Shown here: piece by piece, positions 445-56,871 of the stretch
How the letters are laid out: every line of letters starts with the position of its first letter
Position numbering within the stretch: position 1 is the stretch's first letter
From: an uncultured Candidatus Saccharibacteria bacterium
GTDB taxonomy: Bacteria; Patescibacteriota; Minisyncoccia; Phycocordibacterales; UBA9973
Assembly (NCBI GenBank): GCA_964496425.1
Contig: CAZBZO010000005.1
Span: 10,015-74,014 of the forward strand
DNA: 64,000 nucleotides
Direction: 5' to 3'
The notes under the pieces: generated by a model
What the model saw: the letters and a program-made list of their open reading frames with translations, nothing else
The model's database searches: none
Told to the model about the DNA's origin: nothing
Made by a program: the position numbers and the translations under genes

Positions 445-473
445 TTGATCACCTTTATCGAATCATGTATAAT
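445..473 (+). promoter_or_regulatory. Sigma70-type promoter: -35 TTGATC (445-450), 17-nt spacer, extended -10 TGtTATAAT (468-473), immediately upstream of the guaB ATG
   Basis: Near-consensus hexamers with ideal 17-bp spacing. The -10 ends 5 nt before the ATG at 479, which implies a leaderless or near-leaderless transcript. Confidence 0.55.
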
Positions 474-478
474 AGTGT

Positions 479-1942: not shown

Positions 1943-2207
1943 AGGCTCGCTTGGCTCTGCTTTTTGGAAAACACATAAATTTCTGCAGAAATTTCGTTCC
2001 CTGCCTACCGGCAGGCAGGCTGCTCAGCTCGCCAGCTTCCGCAAGTTTCCAAAAAGCAGGCCTGCGTTCGCTATTTATTTCGAGCGCGCTATACTAGGAG
2101 TATCTCTTCCTGGGCGTCACGGATGTCTCTATCCGCTCGTCTATATGAGATGTAAGACGCAATGTCTTACCTTATAAATAATGAGGAATAAATAGGAAAG
2201 AAAAAAT

Positions 2208-2633
2208 ATGAAAAACAAGATTATTGTTGGACTTCTCGCTCTCGCATTTTTGGTTGGTGGTTCTCAGGCTCATGCTCAGACTCCAGCGGCTACACGAACT
2301 CCAGGAGAAATTATTAGTCGCATGGATGATATCTACGCACGGGTAGGTGATTTTCTAAATAGATTGAGTGCTATTTCGGACAAACTCGAAGCAAATGGCC
2401 GTGATGTTTCAGAAATCGATACTGCAATAAGTGTTGCTGGAAATCTCCGAAGTAAAGCTCAAACAGAAATTAATGAATTTAAAGCTGCGCGTACTGCTGC
2501 AGGTGACGTAATGAATGCTTCTGTCATGAAAGAAGGCCGTGAAGCAAAACAAGCTATTATTGACTTTCTTCAAGCAGTAAAGGCGATCCACACTAAAGCG
2601 CTCGCGACTTTTGGTGATCGCGCTCAGAACTAA
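2208..2633 (+). CDS. Secreted hypothetical protein (signal peptide)
   Basis: N-terminal MKNKIIVGLLALAFLVGGSQAHA signal-peptide-like segment. The remainder is alpha-helical and charged. No family recognised. Confidence 0.5.
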   Translation: MKNKIIVGLLALAFLVGGSQAHAQTPAATRTPGEIISRMDDIYARVGDFLNRLSAISDKLEANGRDVSEIDTAISVAGNLRSKAQTEINEFKAARTAAGDVMNASVMKEGREAKQAIIDFLQAVKAIHTKALATFGDRAQN

Positions 2634-2684
2634 ATTTATTAGTAATATACGTGCTCATCCGAGTACGTATCCTAAATAATTTCT

Positions 2685-2936
2685 ATGGATAATACACAAA
2701 AAAGTAATAATGGTCTCATTTGGGCAGTTGTTATTATCGTCTTGGTGATTGTTGTTGGGGTTTTCGCTATGAAAGGTAAAAACTCTACAATGAATTATGG
2801 TAACAACACAGGTACAGATCAAGTAGGGGGATCGGCTTCGACCGATGCTGAAGTACAAGCTGAGCTCAATTCAATTGGGTCAGGTCTCGGCCAAACAGAG
2901 AGTGAAGCGAACACAGTTGATGGTGGGACTCTCTAA
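2685..2936 (+). CDS. Small membrane-anchored hypothetical protein
   Basis: Single TM helix LIWAVVIIVLVIVVGVFAM, then a Gly/Thr/Ser-rich tail. Confidence 0.4.
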   Translation: MDNTQKSNNGLIWAVVIIVLVIVVGVFAMKGKNSTMNYGNNTGTDQVGGSASTDAEVQAELNSIGSGLGQTESEANTVDGGTL

Positions 2937-3080
2937 ATAACCTACTCTTAAACTGAAATTTGATGCAAAAACCACCATTCTATGGTGGTTTTTGCTTGTG
3001 TGAGTATGAAGAGTTGGGTCGCTTGTGGCTTTCCTTTAAATTTTGGAACAAAATCTACTAGCATGTATACTGTACGTGTT

Positions 3081-4385
3081 ATGAAAAATACTCACACTGT
3101 TGATGTTGTGCTCGGACTCCAATGGGGCGATGAAGGTAAGGGGAAAATCGTCGATGCGCTTGCTCGTGACTACGATCTCGTGGCGCGCTTTCAAGGTGGG
3201 CCGAACGCTGGGCATACGCTCGAATTTGATGGCAAACACATCGTCCTCCACACTATTCCGTCTGGAGTATTTGTTGGTGCGACCAACTTGATTGGTGCCA
3301 ATGTCGTGCTTGATCCAATAAGTTTTGTAGAGGAGCTTGCCCAGGTGGAGCCGCTCGTCAAAAATATTCGCGAGGTTCTCCTCATTGCCCGTGAAGTCAA
3401 CATTATTATTCCGACCCATAAAATTCTCGACAAGGCTGCAGAAGTGGCTAAAGGTGAAGCTAAAATCGGCACAACTTTGCGAGGAATCGGGCCGGCATAT
3501 ATGGATAAAACCGGCCGCAATGGACTTCGCATTGGATACATCAGCGCGCCTGACTTTGCTACTCGATACGAAATGCTTAAAACCAAACACTTGAAACTAC
3601 TCGAAGCTCAAGGGTTTCTTGTGGATGCGGAGCTACTTTCAAAAAACGAAAAGGAATTTTTTGAAGCTATTGAAGTCATTAAAACATTTACACTTGCTAA
3701 CTGCTCCACGTATATGAATACTGCAATTGATGCTGGTAAGAAAATTTTAGGTGAAGGAGCACAGGGAAGCATGCTTGATATCGATCATGGATTTGTCTAT
3801 CCATTTGTGACCTCGTCGAGCACGACGTCGGCTGGCATGTGTACTGGGCTTGGTATTGCACCGCAGAAAATCGGTCGTGTGATCGGCATTACCAAAGCCT
3901 ACTGCACTCGCGTGGGTTCTGGTCCGTTTCCAACAAAGCTCACTGATGAATGGGGAGAAAAATTAAGACAGATTGGCCATGAATTTGGTGCGACGACCGG
4001 CCGACCGCGCGACTGCGGCTGGATCGATCTGCCTGTCCTCAAAAAAGCAATTTTACTCTCTGGTGTGACCGAAATCGCTATTACCAAGCTCGACATTTTA
4101 GATACTTTTGAAGAGATCAAGGTTTGCACGGCCTACTCTATAGATGGAGTGGAAACGACCGAGCTGCCGTTTGACCCAAATCTTTCTGTTATGACGCCAG
4201 TTTATAAAACCTTCCCTGGTTGGCAGACGTCGATTAAAGCGGCGACATCGTATGAGGCATTGCCAGAGAATTTAAAAACATTTGTTTCGTATCTTGAAAC
4301 CGAGCTTGGTGTACGGGCGACGTATCTTTCTACGGGCCCTGAGCGGGAAGCGACCATTATTCGCAATCGTACTGAAGTGGCATGA
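3081..4385 (+). CDS. purA: Adenylosuccinate synthetase
   Basis: GDEGKGK P-loop, GPNAGHT, and the TTGRPR..GW motif. Start chosen at MKNTHTV (3081) for a 434-aa protein; the track ORF starts at 2982. Confidence 0.92.
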   Translation: MKNTHTVDVVLGLQWGDEGKGKIVDALARDYDLVARFQGGPNAGHTLEFDGKHIVLHTIPSGVFVGATNLIGANVVLDPISFVEELAQVEPLVKNIREVLLIAREVNIIIPTHKILDKAAEVAKGEAKIGTTLRGIGPAYMDKTGRNGLRIGYISAPDFATRYEMLKTKHLKLLEAQGFLVDAELLSKNEKEFFEAIEVIKTFTLANCSTYMNTAIDAGKKILGEGAQGSMLDIDHGFVYPFVTSSSTTSAGMCTGLGIAPQKIGRVIGITKAYCTRVGSGPFPTKLTDEWGEKLRQIGHEFGATTGRPRDCGWIDLPVLKKAILLSGVTEIAITKLDILDTFEEIKVCTAYSIDGVETTELPFDPNLSVMTPVYKTFPGWQTSIKAATSYEALPENLKTFVSYLETELGVRATYLSTGPEREATIIRNRTEVA

Positions 4386-7351
4386 TTTCGAGAATTGATA
4401 TTCTAACCATCGGTTCCGACGGACGAGCGCTCGTCAAAGAGAAATTATTTTCCAATGTTGTAGGGCGACCCTTAGCTGTCACTATACTCAACTCATATCT
4501 TATCGAAGCTTCACTTTCTGATTCAGCCCTTTCAAAAGTAGCCATACTACTCACCAACCCAGTCCTTGAAGAGGCATACGTAAATAAAAATCCGCTTAAA
4601 AATAAATTTTCATATGCGATTGAAATCGGATTTTTGCCAGGCGTAACAGATAATGTCGCAGCGACAGTCCGCGAGACGATCGAGGACGCTTTGAAGAGAA
4701 AATTTAAACCAAGTGAAGGAGTGTATACAAGCACAGTTTTTATTATTTCAGGTGTATTTTCGCAAGAGGATGTAGAAAAAATCGCTAGTGCACTCTACAA
4801 TCCACTGATTGAGCGTGCCAGTATTATTCCATATCAAGAATTTTCCAAAACAAAAAAGTTTCCTACTCGCGTGGCAAAAGTGAAGCTTCATGATACTGCG
4901 AGTGCTGACCGTGTCGATCTTGACGTGTCTGATGCTGAGCTTGCTCGTATCGGCAAAGAAGGCGTCGCCAACGCCGACGGGACGCGCCGCGGACCATTGG
5001 CGCTCGGACTTTCTGAAATGAAAGTAATCCAAGAATATTTTCGTGCCGCAAAACGTAAACCGACTGATATCGAACTTGAATCTTTAGCACAGACGTGGAG
5101 CGAGCACTGCAAGCATACGATTTTCGCTTCACCACTGGATGAAATAAAAGACGGACTGTATAAAACATATATCAAAGGTGCGACCAATCAAATCCGAAAG
5201 AAAAAAGGGAAGAGTGATTTCTGTGTCTCAGTATTTTCTGACAATTCAGGCGCCATAGTTTTCGATGAAAAATATTTGATCACGCACAAAGTCGAAACTC
5301 ACAATTCGCCATCAGCGCTCGATCCCTTTGGTGGAGCGATCACGGGTATTGTTGGGGTCAATCGCGATGCTATGGGATTTGGTCTGGGTGCTAAGCCGAT
5401 CGCTAACACGTATGGATTTTGTTTAGCTCTGCCTGCCGATACTCGGCCACTGTATCGCGATAGTGCTCTCACGCAAAAAATGTTGCCACCCGCGCGGATC
5501 ATGGAAGGTGTGATCAAAGGCATCAATGCTGGTGGCAATTGCTCCGGGATTCCGACACCTGACGGATTTGTATTTTTCGATGAACGTTATCGCGGCAAAC
5601 CCCTTGTATTTGCCGGTACCGTCGGACTGATTCCCCGAAAAATTCATGGTAAACGCTCAGATATCAAAAAAGCTAAAGCAGGAGACTTGATTGTAATGGT
5701 CGGGGGACGAGTCGGTGCCGATGGTATTCACGGCGCTACATTTTCTTCGGTGGAAATGGACTCTGGTTCTCCCGCTACCGCAGTCCAGATCGGAGACCCG
5801 ATCACTGAGAAAAAATTCTCCGATGCCTTAGTCAAAGAAGCTCGCGATCAAGAGCTCTACCATAGTATTACCGACAACGGTGCTGGCGGACTTTCTTGTT
5901 CGGTTGCGGAAATGGCAAAAGAATGTGGGGGAGCGATTGTTGATCTTGAAAAAGTACCACTGAAATATCCAGGGCTTGCGCCATGGGAGATTTGGATCTC
6001 CGAATCCCAAGAGCGCATGACGCTTGCGGTGCCGAAAAGTAAATGGAAAGCATTTAAGGCTCTCATGGATCGCCGTGGCGTGGAAGCAACAGCGATTGGC
6101 ACGTTTACTGCTTCCGGTTGTTGTGTTGTTAGCTATCAAAAAAAGAAAATCATGGATATTCCGCTCTCATTTCTGCATGACGGATTGCCTTTAAGGCATC
6201 TCGTGAGTAAAGAAGAGAAGAAGATACACCCTGAGCCGCCAAAGCAAAACAATTCATCACTTACTACTGTGCTTACTCATATGTTGGCGCGACCAAATAT
6301 TGCGAGTCGGGCATTTATAACCACGCAATACGATCATGAAGTTCAATCAGGATCGGTTGTGAAGCCATTGGTCGGAGCTGGTAGCGTCGATAACGACGGA
6401 GCAGTGATAAAGCCAGTACTTTCTTCTCGTCGTGGCGCCGTGCTTTCTCATGGCATAGTGCCGGTGTATTCGGACATCGATACCTATCATATGGGAGCAG
6501 CTGCTATTGATACAGCAGTGCGTAATGCCATCGCTCTTGGTGCGTCACTCGACTACCTCGCCATCCTCGACAATACTTGCTGGTGCAGTTCGGATGACCC
6601 TGTGCGGCTCTACGAGCTTAAACAGGCTATCAAAGCGTGCTATGACTATGCACTCATCTACGGCACGCCATATATCTCCGGCAAAGACAGTATGTTCAAC
6701 GATTTTAAAGGTTACGACGAAAAAGGTAGCCCGATAAAAATTTCTATTCCGCCAACACTTTTGATTTCATCTATCGGCGTGATAAAAGATATTCGAAAAG
6801 CTATTACCCTTGATCCAAAAATGCCGGGTGACTTAGTGTATCTCCTTGGCGAAACACATGACGAACTTGGCGCCTCGGAATACTTTGCGTTTATTTCAGA
6901 TATGGCTAAGAAAAAATATGTTGGCAACAATATTCCGGAAGTTGATGGTGTACGAAACAAAAAACTCTATCAATCATTTGAAAAAGCTGGAGCAAGTGGG
7001 CTAATTGCTTCAGCCATATCCGTCGGTCGGGGAGGGCTCGGTGTAGTGCTTTCAAAAATGGCGATTGCAAGTGGGCTAGGACTTGAAATTAGCCTGAAAG
7101 GTATCCCAGGCAAAGTATCGCAGAACGATTTTGCACTTTTCTCCGAATCCCAAGGTCGCATCGTGGTGACGATTGATCCGAAAAATAAGAAGAAATTTGA
7201 AGCACATTTCAAAGGCCAAGCGATTAAACTCATTGGGAAAGTACGAGCGGATAAAAAAGTGACGATAGCAGGCCTCTCAGGACGAAATACGGTTGATACT
7301 ACGGTTTCCGCACTCGATCAGGCATACAAAAAAACTTTCAAGAATTACTAA
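4382..7351 (+). CDS. purL: Phosphoribosylformylglycinamidine synthase subunit PurL with a ~190-aa N-terminal extension (possibly a fused PurS-like domain)
   Basis: 989 aa. The SEHCKH motif and AIR-synthase-related domains are present. ATGA overlap with the purA stop. No separate purS ORF in the cluster. Confidence 0.9.
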   Translation: MISRIDILTIGSDGRALVKEKLFSNVVGRPLAVTILNSYLIEASLSDSALSKVAILLTNPVLEEAYVNKNPLKNKFSYAIEIGFLPGVTDNVAATVRETIEDALKRKFKPSEGVYTSTVFIISGVFSQEDVEKIASALYNPLIERASIIPYQEFSKTKKFPTRVAKVKLHDTASADRVDLDVSDAELARIGKEGVANADGTRRGPLALGLSEMKVIQEYFRAAKRKPTDIELESLAQTWSEHCKHTIFASPLDEIKDGLYKTYIKGATNQIRKKKGKSDFCVSVFSDNSGAIVFDEKYLITHKVETHNSPSALDPFGGAITGIVGVNRDAMGFGLGAKPIANTYGFCLALPADTRPLYRDSALTQKMLPPARIMEGVIKGINAGGNCSGIPTPDGFVFFDERYRGKPLVFAGTVGLIPRKIHGKRSDIKKAKAGDLIVMVGGRVGADGIHGATFSSVEMDSGSPATAVQIGDPITEKKFSDALVKEARDQELYHSITDNGAGGLSCSVAEMAKECGGAIVDLEKVPLKYPGLAPWEIWISESQERMTLAVPKSKWKAFKALMDRRGVEATAIGTFTASGCCVVSYQKKKIMDIPLSFLHDGLPLRHLVSKEEKKIHPEPPKQNNSSLTTVLTHMLARPNIASRAFITTQYDHEVQSGSVVKPLVGAGSVDNDGAVIKPVLSSRRGAVLSHGIVPVYSDIDTYHMGAAAIDTAVRNAIALGASLDYLAILDNTCWCSSDDPVRLYELKQAIKACYDYALIYGTPYISGKDSMFNDFKGYDEKGSPIKISIPPTLLISSIGVIKDIRKAITLDPKMPGDLVYLLGETHDELGASEYFAFISDMAKKKYVGNNIPEVDGVRNKKLYQSFEKAGASGLIASAISVGRGGLGVVLSKMAIASGLGLEISLKGIPGKVSQNDFALFSESQGRIVVTIDPKNKKKFEAHFKGQAIKLIGKVRADKKVTIAGLSGRNTVDTTVSALDQAYKKTFKNY

Positions 7352-7352
7352 T

Positions 7353-9104
7353 ATGGAAACTCGTACCTGTCAAAACTGCAAATCTGATTTTTCAGTTGAA
7401 TCAGATGATTTTGCATTTTATGAAAAAATCAAAGTTCCTCCGCCGACGTTTTGTCTGCTGTGTAGATATAAGCGACGTATTATTTGGCGCAATGTCCGAC
7501 ATTTATTTCGAGGTATAGATGCAATAACAAAAAAAGAGATATTTACGGGGATTCCTCCCGAAGCCAATCATACTTTATACGAGCAGTCATATTGGAATAG
7601 TGATAATTGGGATCCTTTGGATTATGGAAAGGAATATGATTTTTCTACTCCTTTTTTCCAACAATTGCACGATCTGTATTATTCGGTTCCGTGTCCAGCA
7701 AAATCTATGCAGCGATGTATCAATTCGGATTATTCGAATCAATGCGACGATATGAAGAACACGTATCTTTGTTTTAACGCTACTTTTATGGAAGATAGCG
7801 CATATTGTTGCAATGGAAGTGTTTTGAAAAACTGTTTTGATCTCACAAGTTGTTATAACAGTGAATTTTGTTACGACAATGTCCGGGTGGACAAAAGTTA
7901 CCACACAATAGGATCTATTACGTGCGAGAGTTGTGTTGATGTATGGTTCTCAAAAAATTGCATAGGATGTACTGATTGTTTTGGGTGTGTAAATCAACGA
8001 AATGCGACATATCGAATTTACAACAAACAATATTCCAAAGAAGATTATTTCGAAAAAATTAAATCTTTGAATCTTAATACGTGGTTAGGTTTTTCTGCTG
8101 CGCAAAAACAAGCTGAAGATTTTTGGAATACATTTCCCCTTAAATACATGCTAGGATTTCGGAACCAGGATGTATTAGGTGAAGATATTAAAGATAGTAA
8201 GAATGTAAAATACTCTTATATTGTCCAACGGGGCGAGAATTTAAAATACGTTCAAGATGTCCCATTTGGTGGTGCCAGCAATTCATATGATTATACATCG
8301 TGGGGAGTGAGCGCATCTCAACTCTATGAATGTATGGTTTGTGGTGAACAAGTGGATAAGCTGAAATTTTGTTTTGAATGTTGGCCAGGTTGTCAAGAAC
8401 TTGAATACTGTATCCATGTACGTCGTTCAAAAAATTGTTTTGGCTGCGTCGGGGTGAAAGATAAACAATATTGCATTTTCAATGTTCAGTATTCTAAAGA
8501 AGAATATGAAAAGCTCGTTCTAAAAATAAAAGAGCATATGGATCAAATGCCATATAAAGATAAAAGAGGTAACACATATACATATGGTGAATTTTTCCCG
8601 AGTGAATTTTCTCCTTTTTCCTACAATCAAACACTTCTCAATGATCAATTTCCATCTACTAAGAAGGGTACTGAAGAAGAAGGATTTCTCTGGCGCGATA
8701 CTCTCGGTCGGGAGTATGAAACCACAATGAAAGCAGGAGATCTTCCAGAGAGAATTTTAGACGTAGGAGAGGATATCACCAAAGAACTTATTGCTTGTGT
8801 TTCTTGTAGTAAGGCGTATCGGATTATTGCAAATGAATTTCAATTTCTTAAAAATCTTTCCTTGCCACTTCCACGAATGTGTGTAGACTGTAGGTTCGCA
8901 CGGCGTCAAACGTTTATGGTGCCGCCGGTTTTGCATGAAGAAACATGTCACTGCGGCGGGTCTCGCTCGATAAATCAAGAATACCAAAATACCGAAATAC
9001 ATTTTCATGGCGCCGGCAAATGTCCCAATACTTTCCAAACAGCGTATGATCCAGAGAAAGAGATAATTTATTGCGAAGATTGTTATAAGAAAGAAGTATT
9101 TTAA
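7353..9104 (+). CDS. Cysteine-rich protein, paralogue A (N- and C-terminal CxxC zinc-ribbon-like motifs; internal duplicated CFGCVG..KQYCIFN.QYSKEEYE repeat); function unknown
   Basis: 583 aa from METRTCQNCK, more than 40 Cys in CxxC knuckles. Start 1 nt after the purL stop. Homologous along its length to the 10878-12590 ORF. Confidence 0.8.
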   Translation: METRTCQNCKSDFSVESDDFAFYEKIKVPPPTFCLLCRYKRRIIWRNVRHLFRGIDAITKKEIFTGIPPEANHTLYEQSYWNSDNWDPLDYGKEYDFSTPFFQQLHDLYYSVPCPAKSMQRCINSDYSNQCDDMKNTYLCFNATFMEDSAYCCNGSVLKNCFDLTSCYNSEFCYDNVRVDKSYHTIGSITCESCVDVWFSKNCIGCTDCFGCVNQRNATYRIYNKQYSKEDYFEKIKSLNLNTWLGFSAAQKQAEDFWNTFPLKYMLGFRNQDVLGEDIKDSKNVKYSYIVQRGENLKYVQDVPFGGASNSYDYTSWGVSASQLYECMVCGEQVDKLKFCFECWPGCQELEYCIHVRRSKNCFGCVGVKDKQYCIFNVQYSKEEYEKLVLKIKEHMDQMPYKDKRGNTYTYGEFFPSEFSPFSYNQTLLNDQFPSTKKGTEEEGFLWRDTLGREYETTMKAGDLPERILDVGEDITKELIACVSCSKAYRIIANEFQFLKNLSLPLPRMCVDCRFARRQTFMVPPVLHEETCHCGGSRSINQEYQNTEIHFHGAGKCPNTFQTAYDPEKEIIYCEDCYKKEVF

Positions 9105-9105
9105 T

Positions 9106-10881
9106 ATGGAATCTAAAGTAGAAACAACCAAAACAGAACATTTTTCTTGGCTCGATGTGCCGAAGGCGATTTGGTATTTTCTTGATAAAGATAAAGCGAA
9201 ATTTGGCGTTTTCTTTTTTATTTTACTCGGTATTTTTTTCTACGATCTCGTACCTGTATATATTGTAGGAAAGATCGTTGATTTTTTTACTGCGTATACA
9301 CCAGGGCAATCTCTCAATTTGTTCTACTTCTATTCCTTTTTTGTTGGCTCTACGTGGATACTTGCCGCAATAATTCGCAATTATGCAAAAAATAGAATAA
9401 TGAGAATAGGTCAACATGCTCGATCAAATGCACGGATATGGGGGTTTGAGCGTCTTACAGAATTTTCACTTGAATGGCACAACAAGGAAAATACTGGCAA
9501 TAAACTTCAGCGAATTTTCACGGGCTCAGATGCGATTTACGAATTGATGAAAATAATACGAAGCAGATTGTTAAAAATTGCTTCAAGTATCGTGGGGGTA
9601 TTGGCGGTTTTCGTTTTTACAGATATAAAATTTGTCGTGCTAGTTTTTATATATAGTGCTGTATATTTATATGCTGAGTTTATTATCAGTAAGAGAATTT
9701 TTAGATTGAGTAATGAATTTAATACTCTAAATCAGTCAGCAAGTGGAACATACATGGAAAGTGCAGGCAACATACTCTCAGTGAAAGCGCTCGGTGGAGA
9801 GAGCGGTATCGTCAATCGTGTAATGAATAGAGAAATTCTTTCGAGGAACATTTCTATAAAAAAACTCAATGCGAACAGTTTTAAATGGCGAGTCTTAAAC
9901 GTTATTAGCGGCGCTGCGATCGGAGTATTCTTATTAATGACAGGATTTTCTGTACTTTCATCAGCGTTGACTTTAGGAATGGTTCTTGTGTTTTACACTT
10001 ATTTCTCAAAACTCGGTGAATCATTGGCAGATATGAGCGATTTACATTCTGACATGCTAGACGTGCGGTCAAATTTGGCACATATGATGCCGATATTTCG
10101 TGAGACGGAATTTATTAAAACCGGTAATGAAAGTTTCCCAGAATATTGGAATGCGATCAAGATAAATAACATTTCGATGGATTATGGATCAGGCCAGCAT
10201 GGACTCAAGGATTTTAGTTTAGAAATCGCACGTAATTCTAAAGTGGGCATTGCTGGGACCTCCGGCTCGGGTAAGTCGACGCTTGCGAAAATTATTTTGG
10301 GACTCTATAAAATCAAATCGGGTGGAATTCATGTAGGTGAGAGGGATTATTATGATATTTCCCACAACGACATGCTCGATCATATTACTGTTGTCCTCCA
10401 AGAAACCGAGCTTTTTAATCTTTCACTTCGCGAAAACATTACTATGATGCGGACCGAAAATAGCGAGCTTTTAAATCGTGCTGTAGAAATCTCCGAGCTC
10501 GGCGCGGTGATCGACCGTTTGCCTGAAGGTCTCGATGCCAAAATCGGGGAGAAGGGCTACATGCTCTCCGGCGGCGAACGCCAACGCCTCGGTATTGCTC
10601 GAGCGATTTATAAAAATGCCCCGATTATTCTCCTTGACGAAGCCACCTCAGCGCTTGATAGTGAGACTGAAGGCAAGATCATGGCAAAGCTTTTGGGTGA
10701 GTATGGCAAGGATAAGACATTTGTTATTATTGCTCACAGGCTAGGTACATTACGCTACACGGACCGCATTGCCGTGGTAGCCGATGGCAGCGTGGTGGAA
10801 GAGGGGAATTACACCGAACTCATGAGTAAACCGAAGTCATATTTTTCTCGGATGAATCAAGAGAAAAGTCAGAATATATGA
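9106..10881 (+). CDS. ABC transporter, fused permease/ATPase (type-I exporter half-transporter)
   Basis: N-terminal 6-TM domain, Walker A GTSGSGKST, signature LSGGERQRLGIARA, Walker B ILLDEATSALD. No C39 peptidase domain. Confidence 0.9.
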   Translation: MESKVETTKTEHFSWLDVPKAIWYFLDKDKAKFGVFFFILLGIFFYDLVPVYIVGKIVDFFTAYTPGQSLNLFYFYSFFVGSTWILAAIIRNYAKNRIMRIGQHARSNARIWGFERLTEFSLEWHNKENTGNKLQRIFTGSDAIYELMKIIRSRLLKIASSIVGVLAVFVFTDIKFVVLVFIYSAVYLYAEFIISKRIFRLSNEFNTLNQSASGTYMESAGNILSVKALGGESGIVNRVMNREILSRNISIKKLNANSFKWRVLNVISGAAIGVFLLMTGFSVLSSALTLGMVLVFYTYFSKLGESLADMSDLHSDMLDVRSNLAHMMPIFRETEFIKTGNESFPEYWNAIKINNISMDYGSGQHGLKDFSLEIARNSKVGIAGTSGSGKSTLAKIILGLYKIKSGGIHVGERDYYDISHNDMLDHITVVLQETELFNLSLRENITMMRTENSELLNRAVEISELGAVIDRLPEGLDAKIGEKGYMLSGGERQRLGIARAIYKNAPIILLDEATSALDSETEGKIMAKLLGEYGKDKTFVIIAHRLGTLRYTDRIAVVADGSVVEEGNYTELMSKPKSYFSRMNQEKSQNI

Positions 10882-12590
10882 AGAAAGAAACGAAACAATG
10901 TAAGAATTGCGCAAAAGATTTCACTATAGAGTCGGATGACTTTGATTTTTATGAAAAGGTAAAGGTTCCGCCGCCAACGTTTTGTCCGGAGTGTCGCATG
11001 ATCCGCAGATTTCAGCTTCGCAACGAACGCACCTGGCATCGTCGTGTCTGTGATGCGACTGGCAAACCTCTGCTTTCTATGTTTGCATCTGATGTGCCAT
11101 ACAAAGTCTATGAGCTCAATTATTGGAAGAGTGATGCCTGGGATCCGATGGAATATGGGCACGTCTATGACTCGTCGCGCTCCTTTTTTGCCCAATTCGA
11201 CGAGCTCATGCGTGCGGTGCCGCATGCCAACTTGATTCAGAAAAACAACGCCAATAGTGACTATTCAAATGCGACGCTCAATGCCAAGAATTGTTACTAT
11301 TGTTCAAGTCTTGATACGGGGGAGGATTGCAGTTATTGCTTTACTGGCAACATTCGTATAAAAAATTGCCTTGACCTGCATCAATCTATCGATGACGAAT
11401 TCTCGTATGAGCTTGTGGATTGCCTCAAATGCAACCGGCTTTTATTTGGACAAAATTGCGAAGGATGCGTAGATTCGATGTTTTTGTATGATTGTCGCAA
11501 CTGCACCAATTGTTTCGGTTGTGTGGGACTTCGCAATAAACAGTACTGTATATGGAATGAGCAGCATTCGCGTGAGGACTATCTTGAGCAAATGAAACAG
11601 CTGCGAGCGGGAAGCTATCAGACTCTACTCGCGGCTAAAGAAAAATTTGAAGAACTGAAGCTCCGGGTGCCGCGAAAATTTGCTGTCATTCAAAAAGCTG
11701 AGAATGTTTCCGGTGACGATATTTTAAATGCTCGCAACTGCCACCAATGCTTCGTCGTGCGAAATAGCGTAGAGAACTTAAAGTACTGCTATCGTGTCTG
11801 GGAAAACTCTAAAGATATTTGGGATGGGTTTGTGGCCTGGCGTGGATCAGAAATGATGTACGAAGTAGTGAGCTGTACTGGTCAGCGTATTTATTTCTCC
11901 GCCTATATTTGGGGCGGCAATGACATTTTTTATTCGTACAATTGTTTCGATTGCAACAATATCTTTGGCTGTGTCGGTCTCCGAAGCAAATCGTACTGCA
12001 TTTTTAATACCCAATACTCGAAAGAAGAGTATGAAGTATTGATAGCGCAAATCATTGAAAAAATGAAAATAGATGGTGAGTACGGAGAATTTTTCCCTGC
12101 AAGCATTTCGCCCTTCGCGTACAATGAAACAGTAGCACAGGATTATTTTCCCAAAATCAAAGATGATGCACAGGCGAGTGGGTATCGATGGCGAGACGCG
12201 GAAGAAAAAAACTACAATGTTACGATGAAAAGCGAGGCGATCCCAGACGGTATCGCCGAAGCAAGCGACGATATTTTAAAAGAAGTGATCGAATGCGCAC
12301 ACCAAGGAGTATGTAGCGAACAATGCGCGACGGCGTTTCGTCTTACCTCTGACGAGCTCGTTTTTTACCGTACCATGAAACTTCCACTCCCACGACTCTG
12401 TCCGTCATGTCGCCACTATGGTCGGGTCAAGCTCAAAAATCCGCTTCGGCTTTGGAATCGCACCTGTACGTGCGAGCGGGATACTCATACTCACTCGGGA
12501 CCTTGTTCCAATACATTTCAAACGCCGTATTCACCGGAGCGCTCGGAGATGATATATTGCGAAGAATGTTACAATGCGGAAATAGTTTAA
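10878..12590 (+). CDS. Cysteine-rich protein, paralogue B (same architecture as 7353-9104)
   Basis: 570 aa. MKKETKQCKNCAKDFTIESDDFDFYEKVKVPPPTFCPEC matches the paralogue A N-terminus. 4-nt overlap with the ABC gene stop. Confidence 0.8.
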   Translation: MKKETKQCKNCAKDFTIESDDFDFYEKVKVPPPTFCPECRMIRRFQLRNERTWHRRVCDATGKPLLSMFASDVPYKVYELNYWKSDAWDPMEYGHVYDSSRSFFAQFDELMRAVPHANLIQKNNANSDYSNATLNAKNCYYCSSLDTGEDCSYCFTGNIRIKNCLDLHQSIDDEFSYELVDCLKCNRLLFGQNCEGCVDSMFLYDCRNCTNCFGCVGLRNKQYCIWNEQHSREDYLEQMKQLRAGSYQTLLAAKEKFEELKLRVPRKFAVIQKAENVSGDDILNARNCHQCFVVRNSVENLKYCYRVWENSKDIWDGFVAWRGSEMMYEVVSCTGQRIYFSAYIWGGNDIFYSYNCFDCNNIFGCVGLRSKSYCIFNTQYSKEEYEVLIAQIIEKMKIDGEYGEFFPASISPFAYNETVAQDYFPKIKDDAQASGYRWRDAEEKNYNVTMKSEAIPDGIAEASDDILKEVIECAHQGVCSEQCATAFRLTSDELVFYRTMKLPLPRLCPSCRHYGRVKLKNPLRLWNRTCTCERDTHTHSGPCSNTFQTPYSPERSEMIYCEECYNAEIV

Positions 12591-51063: not shown

Positions 51064-51453
51064 CTATGCTTTCGGGACATCACTTACAAACACAGGATGA
51101 AGCTTGTGATATGAAGTGTAGGAGAGGACAAGGATGACCAGGGCGACGACCGGCAAAGCCAGTGCGCCGGAGAAGCCGCCAACTACCCAAATACTTATAA
51201 ACGCACAGATAAAATCGAAACCAAATCCAGCATATGCCCATTCTTTTACGCGTGGAGGTACCTGAGGAATAATGAGGGCAAGGGAACCAAGCACTTTAAA
51301 TGCGACAATAATTGTTACAAAGTAGAGGGGATAGCCGAGACCGGTAATACCCGCAACCGACATTTCACTGTGTCCAGTAAGCGCTGACATCACACCTTCG
51401 AGTAAAAAAATGAGCCCTGTAAACACCCAAAAAATTATTTTGTATTTTTTCAT
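51064..51453 (-). CDS. DoxX-like membrane protein
   Basis: 4-TM small membrane protein. Confidence 0.5.
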   Translation of the reverse strand: MKKYKIIFWVFTGLIFLLEGVMSALTGHSEMSVAGITGLGYPLYFVTIIVAFKVLGSLALIIPQVPPRVKEWAYAGFGFDFICAFISIWVVGGFSGALALPVVALVILVLSYTSYHKLHPVFVSDVPKA

Positions 51454-51522
51454 ATGTCGAAATAATACCCTGGGTTAGGATTTTTTACAAGGCGGAAACT
51501 ATAATATAGAAAGAAGTCGGGG

Positions 51523-51732
51523 CTATAATTTGCCGTTGAGGTACTTACTGGCGACGCTAAGAGCAAATGACGGTAGGATGATAAATACAGTGGCAAAGAG
51601 AAGGCGAATCAGCATTTCGCTTATAGGTGTATCTGGCGTGTCCGGCCCTCCTGCTGTCAAAACAATCAAGATCCCAACGATTCCAAAGGCAATGGATGAG
51701 TAAATAAAAACTTTTGTGGCTATTTTTTGCAT
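51523..51732 (-). CDS. Small two-TM membrane protein
   Basis: 69-aa hydrophobic ORF. Confidence 0.35.
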   Translation of the reverse strand: MQKIATKVFIYSSIAFGIVGILIVLTAGGPDTPDTPISEMLIRLLFATVFIILPSFALSVASKYLNGKL

Positions 51733-51769
51733 AATTCTATAGATATCAATTAATACTATTATTCACTCA

Positions 51770-52159
51770 TTAGGCTTCGACGATCGATTGAAATCCTCCA
51801 ACTGCGAATCGCTTCATATCAAATGGCATAGGCATGTTTTCATATTTCTTTTTATTTTCAGGACTATCCATTTCTTTCATGACTTTTTTATTGACTTCGT
51901 CGCGGTGTTTGCGGGATTTATACACGATCCATGAAAAGGCTACGGTCTCTCCAGGTTTGAGCTTAGCAAGCTTGCCGAACCCTTGCCCCATTCCTTTTTG
52001 CACTTTCAAATCGTCCCCGATGGATTCATAGTATTCAAGCGCGCCGTATTTCATCCATGTCTTTGCTCCCCACTCTGCCATTTTCTTGTATGCAGCGACA
52101 TCTTTCTTTTTAAGTGGTATCACAAACCCATCTACGTATTTTTTACTATTTGTTTTCAT
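51770..52159 (-). CDS. DUF1428-like hypothetical protein
   Basis: YVDGFVIPLKKKDVAAYKKMA N-terminus resembles the DUF1428 family. Confidence 0.45.
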   Translation of the reverse strand: MKTNSKKYVDGFVIPLKKKDVAAYKKMAEWGAKTWMKYGALEYYESIGDDLKVQKGMGQGFGKLAKLKPGETVAFSWIVYKSRKHRDEVNKKVMKEMDSPENKKKYENMPMPFDMKRFAVGGFQSIVEA

Positions 52160-52221
52160 ATATAGTTTGAATAAATGATTAACTTTTTAATATATGACTT
52201 ATTTTATCATTAAATTATATT

Positions 52222-52566
52222 TTGTATATTGCCAGAGTTATACTCCAAAAGATTTGGTACAATGAGTATATGGTCAATACGCCACACAAGATGCCGGAGG
52301 ATTTGCGAAGGGCTATTGCTTCTTCCCCAAAGGCGACTGTAGTGTGGCAAGATATCACACCCCTTGCTCGCAATGAATGGATCTGCTGGGTGATTTCCGG
52401 TATGAAAGCAGAGACGCGAAGTATTCGCATCAAGAAAGCTCTCTCAAAACTTAGTAGCGGCATGCGTCGCCCGTGTTGTTGGATAGGATGTGTGCATCGG
52501 ACGGATAAGCCAATCAGCTCATCGCAAAAGTACATACTCGGTAAACTCTCCAAAAAGAGACCGTAA
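52222..52566 (+). CDS. YdeI/OmpD-associated family-like protein
   Basis: Basic 114-aa ORF. Weak family resemblance. Start may be an internal Met (52267). Confidence 0.35.
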   Translation: MYIARVILQKIWYNEYMVNTPHKMPEDLRRAIASSPKATVVWQDITPLARNEWICWVISGMKAETRSIRIKKALSKLSSGMRRPCCWIGCVHRTDKPISSSQKYILGKLSKKRP

Positions 52567-52592
52567 ACAGTAACTTCGTTACTTTACGGATT

Positions 52593-52892
52593 TTACCAAA
52601 CTTTATAGATTTCTCTCGAACCGGATACATACATATCATTCATATCCTTAAACTTATCCATCATCGCTTTTTCTTCAGCGCTTTGGTTTTCCATCATGTT
52701 CTTTATATCCTCTTCATACGCAGCGAGAGAAGCGTGATTGGTGGCAATGATGACTCTATGGAATTGCCCCGTCATGTCAGTCATGACATAGGTATTCTTT
52801 TCAGGCTTAATATCTGCCCATTCCTTAAAAAGCTTCGCCATCTTTGAAGCATTACCTGGCTTACAAACAAAAATATCGTGTACGATTATCAT
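52593..52892 (-). CDS. Hypothetical small protein
   Basis: 99-aa ORF. Confidence 0.4.
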   Translation of the reverse strand: MIIVHDIFVCKPGNASKMAKLFKEWADIKPEKNTYVMTDMTGQFHRVIIATNHASLAAYEEDIKNMMENQSAEEKAMMDKFKDMNDMYVSGSREIYKVW

Positions 52893-53011
52893 AGATTTTT
52901 ACTCTAATTATCTTAGCTTTTAATCTCCTGGATTCATTATAGCTGTTTTAAAACTGTTAGCCTATCTTGTGATAGTGCTCTAAACGCCAAGCAGGGAGAT
53001 AACTTTTGATT

Positions 53012-53386
53012 TTATTTCTTACTGCGCTTCAAGTAGTCGATGATCCCCCATATTTCAAGACAAAGAGCAATACTCCCTACAATGACCGGAATATACCAAT
53101 ACATGGTGCCATGCCAGGCATAGACATAGAGTTGGGCGAGGAAAAAACCGGCGTAGTCGACAATGACGTCACTCACACGGTTGGCAGCTTGTTCATGAAT
53201 TTCGGCAAAATACTCAAAAATTTCCCAAGTAGTAAACATTCCAACCGCGATGGCGCAGGCGAGGTATGGAGTGAGATGAAAATATAGAAATGCGCCACCG
53301 ATGGCGAAGCATGCAAAAAAGTGCACAAGTGACCAAAGGTCAATAAATTCTCTTTCTTTCCAAGGACCTGTTGTGGTTTCTGACAT
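53012..53386 (-). CDS. Membrane protein, hypothetical
   Basis: 124 aa, 3-4 TM helices. Confidence 0.45.
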   Translation of the reverse strand: MSETTTGPWKEREFIDLWSLVHFFACFAIGGAFLYFHLTPYLACAIAVGMFTTWEIFEYFAEIHEQAANRVSDVIVDYAGFFLAQLYVYAWHGTMYWYIPVIVGSIALCLEIWGIIDYLKRSKK

Positions 53387-53436
53387 AATTTTATTGTATA
53401 ACTTTTTACCTCGAATTTGGGAAAATATTAGTATGG

Positions 53437-53838
53437 TTATACTTTCTTGATAATATAATTATTTCCGTCTGAATAACCCTCGATCACTTTCACTTCTTCT
53501 TCGTCAAAATATTCTATGGCATTAGAAGCTATGGCTTTTTCAAATAGTATCTTTGAGTAGAGCGGGGGAGCATTATCTGCTCGAGATAGAGTGATGTGAG
53601 GGTATGTATTCTTTGATTTCGAGTTCTCGACAAGTAGGTCATCTCCCCATTCATCATACGCACGTCCGATTATTTTTATACTATATTCTTTTCCTATTTC
53701 TATTCCATCTAAACTATGTGGTTCAAATTCGATTGTCGAATGATGTCCAAAAATTTTCTCGTGTTTAGGAGGGAATCTTTTCAATAAATCCTCTCTGTCT
53801 TTTACAAAGAGAGCGGTAAATTTTATTCCTTTCTCCAT
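53437..53838 (-). CDS. Putative 2H-phosphoesterase (LigT-like) family protein
   Basis: Two HxTx motifs (HSTI and HITL) about 60 aa apart in a 133-aa protein. Confidence 0.4.
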   Translation of the reverse strand: MEKGIKFTALFVKDREDLLKRFPPKHEKIFGHHSTIEFEPHSLDGIEIGKEYSIKIIGRAYDEWGDDLLVENSKSKNTYPHITLSRADNAPPLYSKILFEKAIASNAIEYFDEEEVKVIEGYSDGNNYIIKKV

Positions 53839-54386
53839 ATTTTATATTATACACAAAAATAATTTAGGTTCGAACTTCCTAAGGAGGCAAGTTTAGAATT
53901 CATAAAAGAAAAAATCCACCTAGTAGTAGATTTTTTTCTACCACGAAGTGGATTAGTTTTTATTGATTCATCCAGTAGGAAATTTTTCCCCACCAGGTCA
54001 ATTCTGATCTATGTTTTTTCCAAAGGAAATCCAGTAGCCCCAGAATTGAATTGACTTTCGTTTCGGGCATTACTTTTTCGCCCGTTGACAAGGTTAAATT
54101 CATTAACTCACCTGTCTGTTTCGACCAGGTGGCTTGTGATTTGTAGTCAGCAAACATGTTCATTTTTGGTTATTTTATTGTGAGTAAAAATTATTTATTA
54201 AGTTCTCTCAATCTCCATAAAGAAACTGGGAGAACCTAATAAAAACTAACAATAAAATCCAAATATCAAAGAACTACACAACTCTTTACATTATAGCATA
54301 ATAGGACCTATTTGTCAAATGTTGCTCCGAACTTGGGATGATGCTCGAAAGAGTATTCTAGAGATAAAATAAGATCAATAAAGTAT

Positions 54387-54815
54387 TTATTTTCCGGGAG
54401 AAAATTCGATTATCCACTCAATACCGTATTTATCTCTAAACATCCCCGCATAGGTACCCCACGGACTATCGCCCATAGGTCCTTCCATTTCTCCTCCAGC
54501 CGAAAGACCATTGAATAACCTATCAGCTTCTTCTTTGCTTTCTGTGCTTATCACAATTTTACTTCGGTTTTCATTCTCATTTACTTTCCCCATAAACTCA
54601 GGCACGTCGTTGGCTATCAGTATATTATCTTTACTAATAGGCAAAGCAATATGCATTATTTTATTTTCTTCCTTCTCTGCCACTGGGAATTCAGTGCTCG
54701 CCAGATCTTTGAAACGTATAATTTTTGTAAACTCACCGCCAAAAACTGATTTGTAAAAGGTGAGTGCTTCTTCGGCATTACCGTTGAAGTTAATCCAAGG
54801 ATTTATTGTTGTCAT
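54387..54815 (-). CDS. VOC (glyoxalase/bleomycin-resistance) family protein
   Basis: PhnB-like pattern INPWINFNGNAEEALTFYKSVFGG. Confidence 0.65.
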   Translation of the reverse strand: MTTINPWINFNGNAEEALTFYKSVFGGEFTKIIRFKDLASTEFPVAEKEENKIMHIALPISKDNILIANDVPEFMGKVNENENRSKIVISTESKEEADRLFNGLSAGGEMEGPMGDSPWGTYAGMFRDKYGIEWIIEFSPGK

Positions 54816-54972
54816 AATTTAAGGGTAGCAAATTAAAGGAGTTTGATAAAGCGGTTGATTTGGCTCCGAACTTGGGATGAAGTTCGAAATGCAATTTTGA
54901 ATAATTAAACAAAAGAAAATCCGCAGTCTTGATAACTACGGATTTATTCTAGAGAATTAATTCTTCTGTCTT

Positions 54973-55473
54973 TTAATCAAAATACGCTATACGATAGAAT
55001 AAGTGATTTTCTTTAAAGATGTGAATGAGCTGAGATGCTACTACCTGCCATTGTTTTGTATCGGCTTTCCAATGAAAGCTAAATTGTAAAACATAACCAG
55101 GATCATTAGGAGCTTCCATGTTCCCGATGATATGCGTTCCAGTTTCAAGAGATACTTTGCCAGGTTGTCCATCCATTTGATTCTCTAACAATTGTAGAAT
55201 TCTTTCCACAATTGTGTTTGCTGAATCTAAATATTCGCAACACAATAACGCAGAAATCCCTTTATGATCTGTACCATCTACAACCAAATCCTCAACAAGG
55301 ATTTCGTTATCAGTTTTTTCATCGGTAATCAGTTGTTCAATTTCCCAGACACGTGTTAGAAGGAATCTTTCATCACTTAATGCTTTTCTACGATTCTCAC
55401 GTGCTAGCCCCTTAATGAAGTATGTGTTGAGAAGCTGGCAGCCCGTATGTCTTTTTTGATTTAAGTTTTGCAT
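54973..55473 (-). CDS. Hypothetical protein
   Basis: 166-aa ORF. Confidence 0.4.
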   Translation of the reverse strand: MQNLNQKRHTGCQLLNTYFIKGLARENRRKALSDERFLLTRVWEIEQLITDEKTDNEILVEDLVVDGTDHKGISALLCCEYLDSANTIVERILQLLENQMDGQPGKVSLETGTHIIGNMEAPNDPGYVLQFSFHWKADTKQWQVVASQLIHIFKENHLFYRIAYFD

Positions 55474-55953
55474 GGTTTTTTATTTAAAATGAGATTATTG
55501 AGTTGTCTCTAATCCCAAGCAGGGAACAGGGAAAACCCAACAAATCAACAATAAATAACCAAATATTTCAAAGGACTATTACTGAGAAAATAATAGCATA
55601 AAATATACAAAAAGTCAAATGCTCCGCGGATAGGAATTTCTCGGCTTACTGCCGCAGGTACTTTTCAATCTCGCAAGCTCGATAATGAAAAGTCTTTCGA
55701 ATCCTAACGCGAGTGAAGTAGTTCACTCGCTCCCGCAGGAGAGGTCATCAAAACAAAAACACCCGCAAGGGTGCTTTGTTTTGTGATGCTCCGAACCTGG
55801 GATGATGTTCGGAAGGCTATTCTTGAAAGTGGAAGGCAGTTTTGAGCTTGGAAATAAGGTCTTTAGGAGAAGGATACTCAATAGACCCGCTAACTTTTCA
55901 TATTTATTTTATTGAGTCAAAACCTATGCGCGAATGAGTGGGAAATGTTATAG

Positions 55954-56466
55954 TTAGTCTTTTAAAACCCCTAAATCTTTTAGGATAAAATTTGCCATTT
56001 GTTCAATACTCAATACCCCCGAATCAAAGGTAGTATTACTTTGATGTATATTCTTGTTATATGTCTCTGAGAACTTATCTAGGGTTTCTTGCGATGGTAT
56101 CGGCTTATTCTCCTTGTAAGCCCTTTTCGTAATTCTTTCCTTCCGAATATCTTCATGAATTTCCACCCTATATAAGAAAAAATCTACACAATACTTTTCT
56201 GCAATTTCTTTATATTTATCCACTTCTTCATTGGTCATATTTTTATCTACAATAACAGAAATATTATTTTTAAAATATTCTTTGGTCATAGCGTAAGTAA
56301 CATTTACACTTGTTTGTTTGTGTGAATACACTTCTTTGAATTGAGAAACAAAGCTCTTAATATTATCGTAAGCCACATGAGCTGTGTTAGCTAATTGATT
56401 TTTCAAAAACTCAGCAAGGGTGGTCTTGCCCGCCCCTGAGGTACCTATTATAACAACCATAAACAT
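55954..56466 (-). CDS. P-loop NTPase / small-molecule kinase-like (AAA_33-type)
   Basis: Walker A GTSGAGKTT near the N-terminus. Start chosen at MFMVVIIG. Confidence 0.6.
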   Translation of the reverse strand: MFMVVIIGTSGAGKTTLAEFLKNQLANTAHVAYDNIKSFVSQFKEVYSHKQTSVNVTYAMTKEYFKNNISVIVDKNMTNEEVDKYKEIAEKYCVDFFLYRVEIHEDIRKERITKRAYKENKPIPSQETLDKFSETYNKNIHQSNTTFDSGVLSIEQMANFILKDLGVLKD

Positions 56467-56557
56467 CTTGTCTCTTCTATACATAGCGAAAGTATACTTC
56501 ATGAGAAATGAAAATACCATCCAGCATTTGGATGTATCAGAGGCGTCTGTTCCTTCT

Positions 56558-56632
56558 TGGCTCCGCGGGTAGGATTCGAACCTACGACCAATCGCTTAAC
56601 AGGCGACCGCTCTACCACTGAGCTACCGCGGA
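56558..56632 (-). tRNA. tRNA-Asn (anticodon GUU) with encoded CCA
   Basis: The reverse complement folds as a cloverleaf. 7-bp acceptor stem UCCGCGG/CCGCGGA, D-arm GCUCAGUGGUAGAGC, anticodon loop CUGUUAA, T-arm GGUUCGAAUCC, discriminator G plus CCA. Confidence 0.9.
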
Positions 56633-56871
56633 ATAATATTATTCTGTTTGATAAATCTTCTCCCAGCTGCGCTCTTCAGGTATCTTTCCCTTTTGCGCGC
56701 TGTTTGAAGGTTTTCAAACTCTTCTGTGTATACCACAACCCATGGAATGTACCGTCTCGTAAAAGTATTCTTGCCACTGTTATGTTCTTGAAGTCGACGA
56801 TTGATATCAGTTGTACTGCCAACATATGTTATCAACCTTGATTCACTTTTCAGAATATACACAGTTGCCAT
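56623..56871 (-). CDS. GIY-YIG nuclease-domain small protein (YhbQ-like)
   Basis: VYILKSESRLITYVGSTTDINRRLQEHNSG..PWVVVYTEEF GIY-YIG motif. Its 3' end overlaps the tRNA by 10 nt. Confidence 0.65.
   Translation of the reverse strand: MATVYILKSESRLITYVGSTTDINRRLQEHNSGKNTFTRRYIPWVVVYTEEFENLQTARKRERYLKSAAGRRFIKQNNIIPR

Follow-up and report, generated by a model that had tools for sequence, protein, structure and literature searches.

The DNA analysed here, hereafter the window, is a 64,000-nucleotide (nt) stretch of a contig from an uncultured Candidatus Saccharibacteria bacterium of the Patescibacteria (contig CAZBZO010000005.1, positions 10,015 to 74,014). Its element of interest is a short repeat, present in three copies between small minus-strand open reading frames (ORFs) 0.7 to 2.3 kb downstream of a minus-strand tRNA-Asn(GTT) gene, in an array region with a G+C content of 36.5 to 38% as against the 41 to 49% typical of the remaining window. 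An original prediction, made by a model from the letters and a list of ORFs, had described a hairpin repeat upstream of small accessory genes and had suggested a shared operator, a regulon of stress or detox genes, or a small REP-like (repetitive extragenic palindromic) element. A different reading emerged from our comparisons. That the repeat is a recombination site at cassette ends is well supported, and we put at about 0.6 the probability of the fuller reading, in which every copy is the att-type site that closes a small cassette at its 3' end, the cassettes are stacked head to tail behind tRNA-Asn and a large serine recombinase (LSR) is the presumed enzyme.

The tRNA-Asn island and its repeat

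The working strand of the motif is the minus strand, on which the features described next all lie. The array is anchored by the tRNA-Asn(GTT) gene (56558 to 56632; found by ARAGORN, 75 bits with the Rfam tRNA model), whose 3' end reads ...CCTACCCGCGGAGC|CA. At least five cassettes follow it. The first carries an ORF of 188 amino acids (aa) that Pfam assigns to the P-loop kinases (AAA_33/Zeta_toxin-like; 55954 to 56520) and ends in motif copy 3 (55787 to 55827, with the terminal GGAGC ending at 55788). Between copy 3 and the next element lies a bidirectional intrinsic terminator (55756 to 55777, terminator scan). The second cassette has no ORF and consists of this terminator and a tRNA-Asn-like structured element, our class C (55621 to 55745; nhmmer and RNAalifold); it ends in ...CCTATCCGCGGAGC, with a GGAGC at 55621, and the third cassette begins there. 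That cassette starts with a promoter (TTGACT-17-TATTAT, 10/12 in the promoter scan) and a structured leader, class A (55474 to 55618), continues with a 166-aa ORF without a Pfam family (54973 to 55473) and an intrinsic terminator (54917 to 54945, terminator scan), and ends in copy 2 (54862 to 54902, GGAGC ending at 54863). The fourth holds a 142-aa ORF of the VOC/3-dmu-9_3-mt family (Pfam; 54387 to 54815) and ends in copy 1 (54323 to 54363), whose GGAGC ends at 54324, so that the junction falls between 54324 and 54323. Directly after copy 1, the fifth cassette begins with a sigma-70-type promoter scoring 12/12 (TTGACA-17-TATAAT, with a TG) and a class A leader (together 54164 to 54318), followed by a 67-aa ORF, again without a Pfam family (53960 to 54163).

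A search of the window with the originally predicted consensus, permitting up to three mismatches, returned exactly three sites, at 54324 to 54350, 54863 to 54889 and 55788 to 55814 in plus-strand coordinates, each with zero mismatches. None of 100 dinucleotide shuffles contained any match, and the number expected by chance was 0. The three-copy repeat is thus real, although copy 1 actually lies about 10 nt to the right of the interval first given for it (54313 to 54345). The full unit is 41 nt long and consists of an AT-rich flank (nAnAATAnCnA), TTCGAAC, the loop ATCATCCCAA, GTTCGGA and then GC, its 3' end reading ...GTTCGGAGC. A covariance model of this unit, R1, scored copies 1, 2 and 3 at 56.7, 56.9 and 58.4 bits, and the next best site in the 64 kb at 13 bits. 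The predicted palindrome is also genuine, but with a different geometry: instead of a 7-nt spacer, the arms TTCGAAC and GTTCGGA form seven pairs, one of them G-T, around a 10-nt loop, and the palindrome is weakened in copy 1 (TTCGAGC). Copies 1 and 3 do share similarity beyond the core, which had been estimated at about 42 nt and measures 79% identity across 52 nt. Folded as DNA, the hairpins are weak, with energies of -1.1 to -6.4 kcal/mol and z-scores from +0.7 to -4.0.

As had been predicted, each copy falls between ORFs, and none lies in coding DNA. The spacing differs from copy to copy: the preceding ORF stops 24 nt (copy 1), 71 nt (copy 2) or 127 nt (copy 3) before the motif, and the following ORF starts 160, 47 or 314 nt beyond it, respectively, so the motif does not hold a fixed distance from gene starts.

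Motif arrays across the Patescibacteria and the position of the junction

An exact-pattern scan covering one genome per species gave 61 loci, nearly all labelled Saccharibacteria, Paceibacterota, Nomurabacteria, Azambacteria, Minisyncoccia or "Patescibacteria group"; L-numbers below label compared loci and contigs. In the window and these loci together (62 sequences), the covariance model found 142 copies at E<1e-3, nearly all of them in Patescibacteria. The unit had no match in Rfam 15, in which only tRNA reached the gathering score and no meaningful match lay below the threshold, nor in IMG/VR, INPHARED or PLSDB; on the latter three results we rejected a phage or plasmid origin. Loop variants ATCGTCCCAA and ATCCTCCCAA are common among the copies found by the model. 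Over all 142 copies, 95.7% of stem positions are pairable, yet not one pair shows a compensatory change, and uncompensated changes occur in the 3' arm (T34G nine times, C35T 14 times). The inverted repeat is thus conserved as sequence, with no indication for or against folding. One A in the AT-rich 5' flank (motif positions 1 to 14; 54350 to 54363, 54889 to 54902 and 55814 to 55827 in the window) is nearly invariant. It stands some 32 nt away from the junction, beyond the reach of a typical serine-integrase half-site, and is left unaccounted for by every explanation considered here.

The copies are organized into arrays of up to seven in 8 kb, and in each of the 36 multi-copy loci all copies share one strand. 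Between copies lie 79 intervals with a median length of 879 nt (range, 271 to 3293), of which 43 contain one ORF. In 61 intervals the longest ORF points the same way as the motif and in 18 (23%) the opposite way, and the motif keeps the orientation of the array regardless. The cargo is diverse: the 571 ORFs of the loci form almost no shared clusters, and the 150 largest represent 185 Pfam families, each found in at most four of them, with VOC, OmdA, DUF1428, DoxX, P-loop kinase, NUDIX, NYN, NADAR, HNH and DUF167 as typical products. Where a sequence includes a tRNA-Asn 3' end, that end points in the same direction as the motifs (16 of 16 sequences), with no copies upstream of it and 34 downstream; this count includes loci that ARAGORN missed because the anticodon loop carries an intron. 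Such insertions into the anticodon loop were noted in some Patescibacteria (L048 865 to 1259, about 330 nt; L046 about 3830 to 4153; L069 about 11590 to 11990) and resemble a group I intron (for example ...GATATAGTCC...). The suggestion of a small REP-like element fits the extragenic, palindromic character of the repeat but not its distribution, which is not dispersed but confined to ordered arrays behind tRNA-Asn. With three copies in 64 kb, all within 1.5 kb, we rejected a REP element, a miniature inverted-repeat transposable element and a DNA-uptake sequence; the RAYT-type Y1 family does not recur in the array loci.

Several comparisons bear on where one cassette ends and the next begins. 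In 165 pairs of copies with homologous DNA downstream only, the variable motif positions match at the background rate except for position 41, the first base after GGAGC (0.70 versus 0.46). In the 15 pairs with homologous DNA upstream only, an excess of matches is seen at positions 1 to 12, 16, 25, 31 and 34. Between paralogous copies, identity runs as far as GGAG(C) and then breaks off abruptly, and locus L059 is 97.5% identical to window positions 55866 to 55786 up to GGAGCAT and unrelated beyond. The VOC cassette, bounded in the window by copies 2 and 1, recurs in other arrays (L025, L028 and L052) at 73 to 78% identity, the cassette at 54324 to 54888 and its counterpart in L025 (3827 to 4381) being 73% identical. 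On the linkage, the paralogous pairs, L059 and the recurring VOC cassette, we assign the motif to the 3' end of the upstream cassette, and these alignments place the joint directly after GGAGC.

The same position is reached from the tRNA side. The breakpoint between tRNA-Asn and the first cassette falls after the equivalent GGAGC of the tRNA, which comprises the acceptor end, the discriminator G and C74. Strain variants were found through the neighboring BrkB protein, which is identical in five contigs (L062 to L066), all 100% identical to the window on its right-hand side. The strain occurs in the samples SRR10036058, SRR10036059, GCA_013558375.1, GCA_013565695.1 and GCA_013573075.1. Two of the five contigs (L063 and L064) end within the tRNA or beside it, and three run past it. 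In L062 and L066 the 100% identity reaches 56560, the C of GGAGC, and in L065 it extends one base farther, to 56559. Three alleles follow. The window continues GGAGC|CAAGAAGG into the kinase cassette, which L062, L065 and L066 lack; L065 continues GGAGC|CCAAAAACATT into a terminator and a class C element, other DNA and then the VOC cassette at 93.5% identity; and L062 and L066 continue GGAGC|ACGATAGGATGAGAGGG into the 3' end of an LSR gene. This is direct evidence for a population-level insertion hot spot at one defined position of tRNA-Asn, and it explains why assemblies of these organisms break at this gene. Linkage mapping, paralogous pairs and strain variants all put the breakpoints within 1 to 2 nt after GGAGC, consistent with one fixed position in a site of at most 50 bp.

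These results leave little room for an operator or promoter element of a regulon of small stress and detox genes, a reading that we consider very improbable. The intergenic position, the end of copy 1 only 5 nt before a perfect -35 box and the -10-like AnAAT in the 5' flank would suit it. Distances to starts and promoters vary, however, and a terminator or a whole non-coding element intervenes in most related copies; the motif is linked to the upstream rather than the downstream cassette, its orientation is set by the array and not by the gene, and the search for a nearby transcription factor that had been proposed turned up no regulator gene near the array. The most conserved flank base (A8) is not a key position of a -10 box, and we rejected AnAAT as a -10 promoter, since the invariant base is off the key position, there is no -35 box, and the spacing, judged by eye, does not fit an extracytoplasmic function (ECF) type.

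A role at the RNA level, as a tRNA-acceptor-like mini-helix at the 3' end of cassette transcripts that marks them for processing or stabilization (punctuation of the RNase P/Z or CCA-adding type) and is carried along with the cassettes, also seems quite unlikely. The 7-bp stem followed by G and C does look like an acceptor stem with discriminator and C74, the motif often stands between ORF and terminator (as copy 3 does), and two neighboring non-coding elements are clearly structured. In many copies, though, including copy 2, the terminator of the upstream gene precedes the motif, and the motif stays array-oriented in the 23% of intervals whose longest ORF is reversed. The lack of covariation in the stem, the uncompensated T34G and C35T changes, the end of conservation exactly at the DNA breakpoint and the absence of any matching Rfam family all count against it too.

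The sharpness of the junction further bears on passive "portable homology," in which RecA-dependent exchange after natural transformation would use motif and leaders as homology arms, with no dedicated enzyme. Saccharibacteria are said to be naturally competent, and most cassettes are bordered by conserved DNA, with the motif to their left and a class A, B or C module to their right. Breakpoints spread over the homology would then be expected, whereas those observed are sharp at GGAGC and motif positions 25 to 35 are unlinked to downstream homology; moreover, the tRNA has the same junction despite having only about 6 nt in common with the motif. We judge such an exchange to be highly unlikely.

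A candidate recombinase and comparable systems

The L062/L066 allele points to a candidate enzyme. The DNA after GGAGC in these two contigs is the 3' end of the gene for a 523-aa protein with Resolvase and Recombinase domains, an LSR, and in L062 (4152 to 5723) this gene converges on tRNA-Asn and overlaps the tRNA end. The 120 best hits to the L062 protein are 48 to 96% identical to it and include named members from Paceibacterota, Kaiserbacteria, Nomurabacteria, Wolfebacteria and Collierbacteria. Relatives with 55 to 96% identity sit at the same tRNA-Asn junction in contigs of other Patescibacteria (L067/68, L069, L072 and L074), and more distant ones (L070 and L073) sit elsewhere. A conserved flank of the LSR gene, AnnATAGGATGAGAGGGCACGAAAGTGC, lies at the junction, and a scan with it gave only tRNA-Asn junctions, adding L076, L077 and L079. 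In L071 the flank follows a motif-like ...TCGTCCATAGTGCGGAGC (also given as ...TTCTAAACTCGTCCATAGTGCGGAGC), and in L067 a 9.4-kb LSR island ends distally with two motif-like hairpins in the orientation of the tRNA.

The LSR elements at tRNA-Asn carry defence genes (L067 3732 to 7637, L062 580 to 1662, L074 1 to 6374), among them an HpaII-type restriction-modification pair, an OLD-family nuclease, a type I restriction-modification system and a FokI-like nuclease; the L067 island holds a restriction-modification system together with the OLD-family nuclease. The same hot spot thus takes up defence islands as well.

Besides the junction itself, motif and tRNA end share CGGAGC at the junction, ATCC in the same register and TTCGA(A). 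The last of these, a single shared sequence on one half-site, is displaced: the distance from the junction to the start of TTCGAA is 26 nt in the motif and 21 nt in tRNA-Asn. In LI integrase, the motifs for the zinc-ribbon domain (ZD) in the attP and attB half-sites are likewise displaced by 5 bp (PMC3783163), and the displacement of TTCGA between motif and tRNA would fit that attP/attB rule. From the shared junction and this half-site resemblance we infer that the site is served by the LSR. Cassettes would be inserted, lost or exchanged by site-specific recombination directly after GGAGC, the motif being the half-site brought by the incoming DNA. CGGAGC by the crossover would be the shared contact of the recombinase domain, and TTCGAA the ZD motif, in the attP-type register in the motif and in the attB-type register in the tRNA. 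An LSR distributed across the Patescibacteria would act in trans on cassettes without an LSR gene of their own, as modelled on the Ccr recombinases that serve composite islands of the staphylococcal cassette chromosome (SCC).

Several observations weigh against this account. The similarity between motif and tRNA-Asn 3' end is modest (shuffle p of about 0.005 to 0.12), and the upstream linkage comes from 15 pairs, several of them within one genome. There is no recombinase gene in the Pfam-annotated part of the window (49.8 to 61.8 kb), and none was noticed in the translations of the rest (1 to 49.7 kb), which by eye contain purine biosynthesis and housekeeping genes; within 8 kb around the 61 array loci, no recombinase family is recurrent. 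Directly after a canonical motif, the LSR flank gave 0 hits in metagenome contigs, and the distal ends of the LSR elements in the recovered DNA (L062, L069, L072, L074 and L079) have no canonical motif. LSR elements have a conserved right flank, whereas the small cassettes are without conserved sequence right of the junction; LSR att sites normally have two recognisable half-sites. For sequential insertion beside the tRNA, an attL-like site would have to serve as attB, which is not canonical LSR behavior. Finally, the hairpin has no compensatory changes, hence no sign whether a folded form matters.

Alternatively, the motif might be the cassette-boundary site of another enzyme, with the LSR elements merely sharing the tRNA hot spot. 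Such an enzyme could be an unlinked integron-like tyrosine recombinase, or an HUH/Y1 nuclease that recognizes the hairpin in single-stranded DNA and cleaves immediately 3' of it. The array architecture resembles that of integrons, the arms end in AAC and begin with GTT as do attC R boxes, the junction lies 2 nt beyond the hairpin as at HUH nick sites, and the canonical motif was never seen flanking an LSR element. Among the 150 largest ORFs of the 61 loci, however, the families that occur more than once include neither Phage_integrase nor Y1 transposase. A G|TT crossover is impossible, because tRNA-Asn retains its own acceptor sequence. L boxes are lacking, 27 to 41 nt is too short for attC, and the stem shows no compensatory changes. 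We regard another enzyme as unlikely, if deserving of some weight, and we rejected an integron attC on three defining features (no IntI, no R/L boxes and the wrong crossover). A plain tRNA 3' fragment left as an att scar was rejected as well, given that the acceptor part differs from the resident tRNA and the similarity is modest; class C, by contrast, copies the tRNA stems. A further candidate considered was the 82-aa stand-alone GIY-YIG nuclease encoded on the minus strand at 56623 to 56871, whose ORF ends inside the 5' end of tRNA-Asn; it was rejected as the enzyme, being present only in the window and L040. As its only homologue in the same position is that of L040, it probably lies outside the cassette system.

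In architecture the closest analogue is the Ccr/SCC system of staphylococci, and in anchoring it is the tandem islands linked to tRNA genes. SCC islands, served by Ccr LSRs at the integration site sequence (ISS)/att repeats of the rlmH/orfX 3' end, likewise consist of elements stacked one behind another at the 3' end of a conserved gene. A short site is directly repeated at each of their boundaries, and an LSR is carried by some elements only, the others presumably being served in trans. Here, by contrast, the array is anchored on a tRNA gene, most units are single genes of about 0.9 kb, and the site is a 41-nt inverted-repeat sequence conserved across a superphylum. The LSR family is unrelated in context, and the present system is known from sequence alone. 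The likeness is one of architecture only.

Integron arrays (IntI, attI and attC), including clusters of attC sites lacking integron-integrases (CALINs), share with the present arrays the co-orientation of mostly single, diverse, small accessory genes, a palindromic site at the end of each cassette and one fixed insertion point at the head of the array; cassettes without ORFs and cassettes with their own promoters occur there also. They differ in that neither IntI nor another tyrosine recombinase is linked here, within the annotated part of the window and the shared families of the 150 largest ORFs of the 61 loci. An attC site is an imperfect R''-L''/L'-R' palindrome of 57 to 141 nt with extrahelical bases, as opposed to a single 7-bp stem with a conserved 10-nt loop in 27 to 41 nt; the junction here is GGAGC| after the hairpin, not G|TT, and the array head is a tRNA 3' end instead of attI.

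Among tRNA-anchored systems, the tycheposons of Prochlorococcus are tandem islands of kilobase elements with tyrosine recombinases, and their repeats are literal partial copies of the tRNA. They too place a variable island directly downstream of a tRNA, have boundary repeats resembling the tRNA 3' end and mix elements with and without a recombinase. The present repeat is, unlike theirs, a distinct conserved motif that shares only CGGAGC, ATCC and the TTCGA shifted by 5 bp with the tRNA, and the candidate enzyme is a serine recombinase. The attP/attB systems of large serine integrases (A118/LI, Bxb1 and phiC31; PMC3783163) also feature a short site with a fixed crossover, an integrase gene abutting the junction and a target within or at the end of a host gene; the placement of one distal motif 5 bp farther out in one partner may be a further parallel. 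In contrast to those, the small cassettes have one conserved half-site, conservation extends to about 33 nt from the junction, and tandem accretion at one attB is not typical of those integrases.

Taken further, and at rather less than even odds, the observations might describe a gene-capture platform spanning the Patescibacteria (the candidate phyla radiation, CPR), analogous to integrons but mechanistically distinct. Single-gene cassettes ending in a 41-nt attP-type half-site that mimics the tRNA-Asn 3' end would be inserted serially behind the tRNA and shuffled in trans by a conserved LSR, and non-coding cassettes (the tRNA-Asn-like element and the promoter-leader modules) would travel in the same arrays. 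Neither the motif family with its arrays, in Rfam or the literature searched, nor the gene-capture hot spot appears to have been described. Patescibacteria have tiny genomes and depend on hosts, and little is understood of the ways in which they gain and trade accessory functions. A cassette boundary that is conserved and easy to recognize would offer a handle for cataloguing their mobile gene pool from metagenomes and would define a "landing pad" at one base of tRNA-Asn; the candidate pair of recombinase and site could be of use in the genetic manipulation of these hard-to-culture bacteria. If the platform is real, it would be a serine-recombinase-based counterpart to integrons and SCC islands.

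Non-coding modules and neighboring genes

The DNA after the motif belongs to a few recurrent modules, our classes A, B and C, whereas the DNA before the motif is almost never common between copies. The three classes also begin immediately after the GGAGC(C)(A) of tRNA-Asn. Class A combines a consensus promoter with a conserved leader. The promoter is near-consensus (TTGACA-17-TATAAT with a preceding TG) and common to many unrelated cassette genes; the leader, present twice in the window and also in L003, L009, L011 and L045 (three copies), carries AGTTCTTTGATATTTGG together with a hairpin of some 24 bp. Of the 26 pairs in the leader, 15 show compensatory changes, and the leader is a candidate cis-regulatory RNA. 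The shared regulatory element that adjoins two of the motif copies is thus a promoter with a structured leader, different in sequence from the motif, and class A could be the real counterpart of the regulatory element that had been sought in the repeat.

Class C comprises a terminator and a tRNA-like element. The element, of about 125 to 140 nt, was found by nhmmer in 10 copies in the window and related loci, elsewhere for example in L029 (3413 to 3540), L048 (1302 to 1442 and 3053 to 3194), L031 (4798 to 4939), L058 (3231 to 3372) and L025 (1746 to 1863), and it had no match in Rfam. Of the 37 pairs predicted by RNAalifold, 15 show compensatory changes. The acceptor-like and T-like stems of the element reproduce those of the resident tRNA-Asn, but its interior differs, with a single 9-bp hairpin and an insertion of about 80 nt at the position of the T-loop. 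In L065 and L048 it directly follows tRNA-Asn. The element could be an RNA, a decoy attachment site or a tRNA relic.

Class B is an AT-rich hairpin with a T-run, followed by TAGTAGAAGTTCGAACCT and an extended -10. At other loci it follows most motif copies and many tRNA-Asn genes. In the window it forms an intergenic minus-strand module without a motif copy (53847 to 53959), in which the hairpin and T-run are followed by TAGGAAGTTCGAACCT and then TGTGTATAAT; L002 and L003 have it at 89%. The window module lies upstream of an ORF at 53437 to 53838, and the class B palindrome AGTTCGAACT resembles the motif arms. Class B could serve as a -35 substitute or an operator, or it could be a relic of recombination.

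Further small accessory genes lie on both strands at 51064 to 53838, namely OmdA (52222 to 52566), DUF1428 (51770 to 52159), DoxX (51064 to 51453) and three ORFs without a family, and no motif copies are detectable in that segment. Homologues of OmdA lie inside motif arrays in five other loci, and those of DUF1428 in three. These genes, which extend to about 51 kb, appear to be cassettes with decayed sites, the three-copy array being the part that survives intact.

Elsewhere in the window, two paralogous cysteine-rich proteins of about 570 to 600 aa are encoded on the plus strand at 7293 to 9104 and 10878 to 12590. They have a common N-terminal motif, CxNC...DFxFYEKxKVPPPTFCxxCR, and, as judged by eye from the translations, their genes flank an ABC transporter gene within an apparent purine-biosynthesis cluster.

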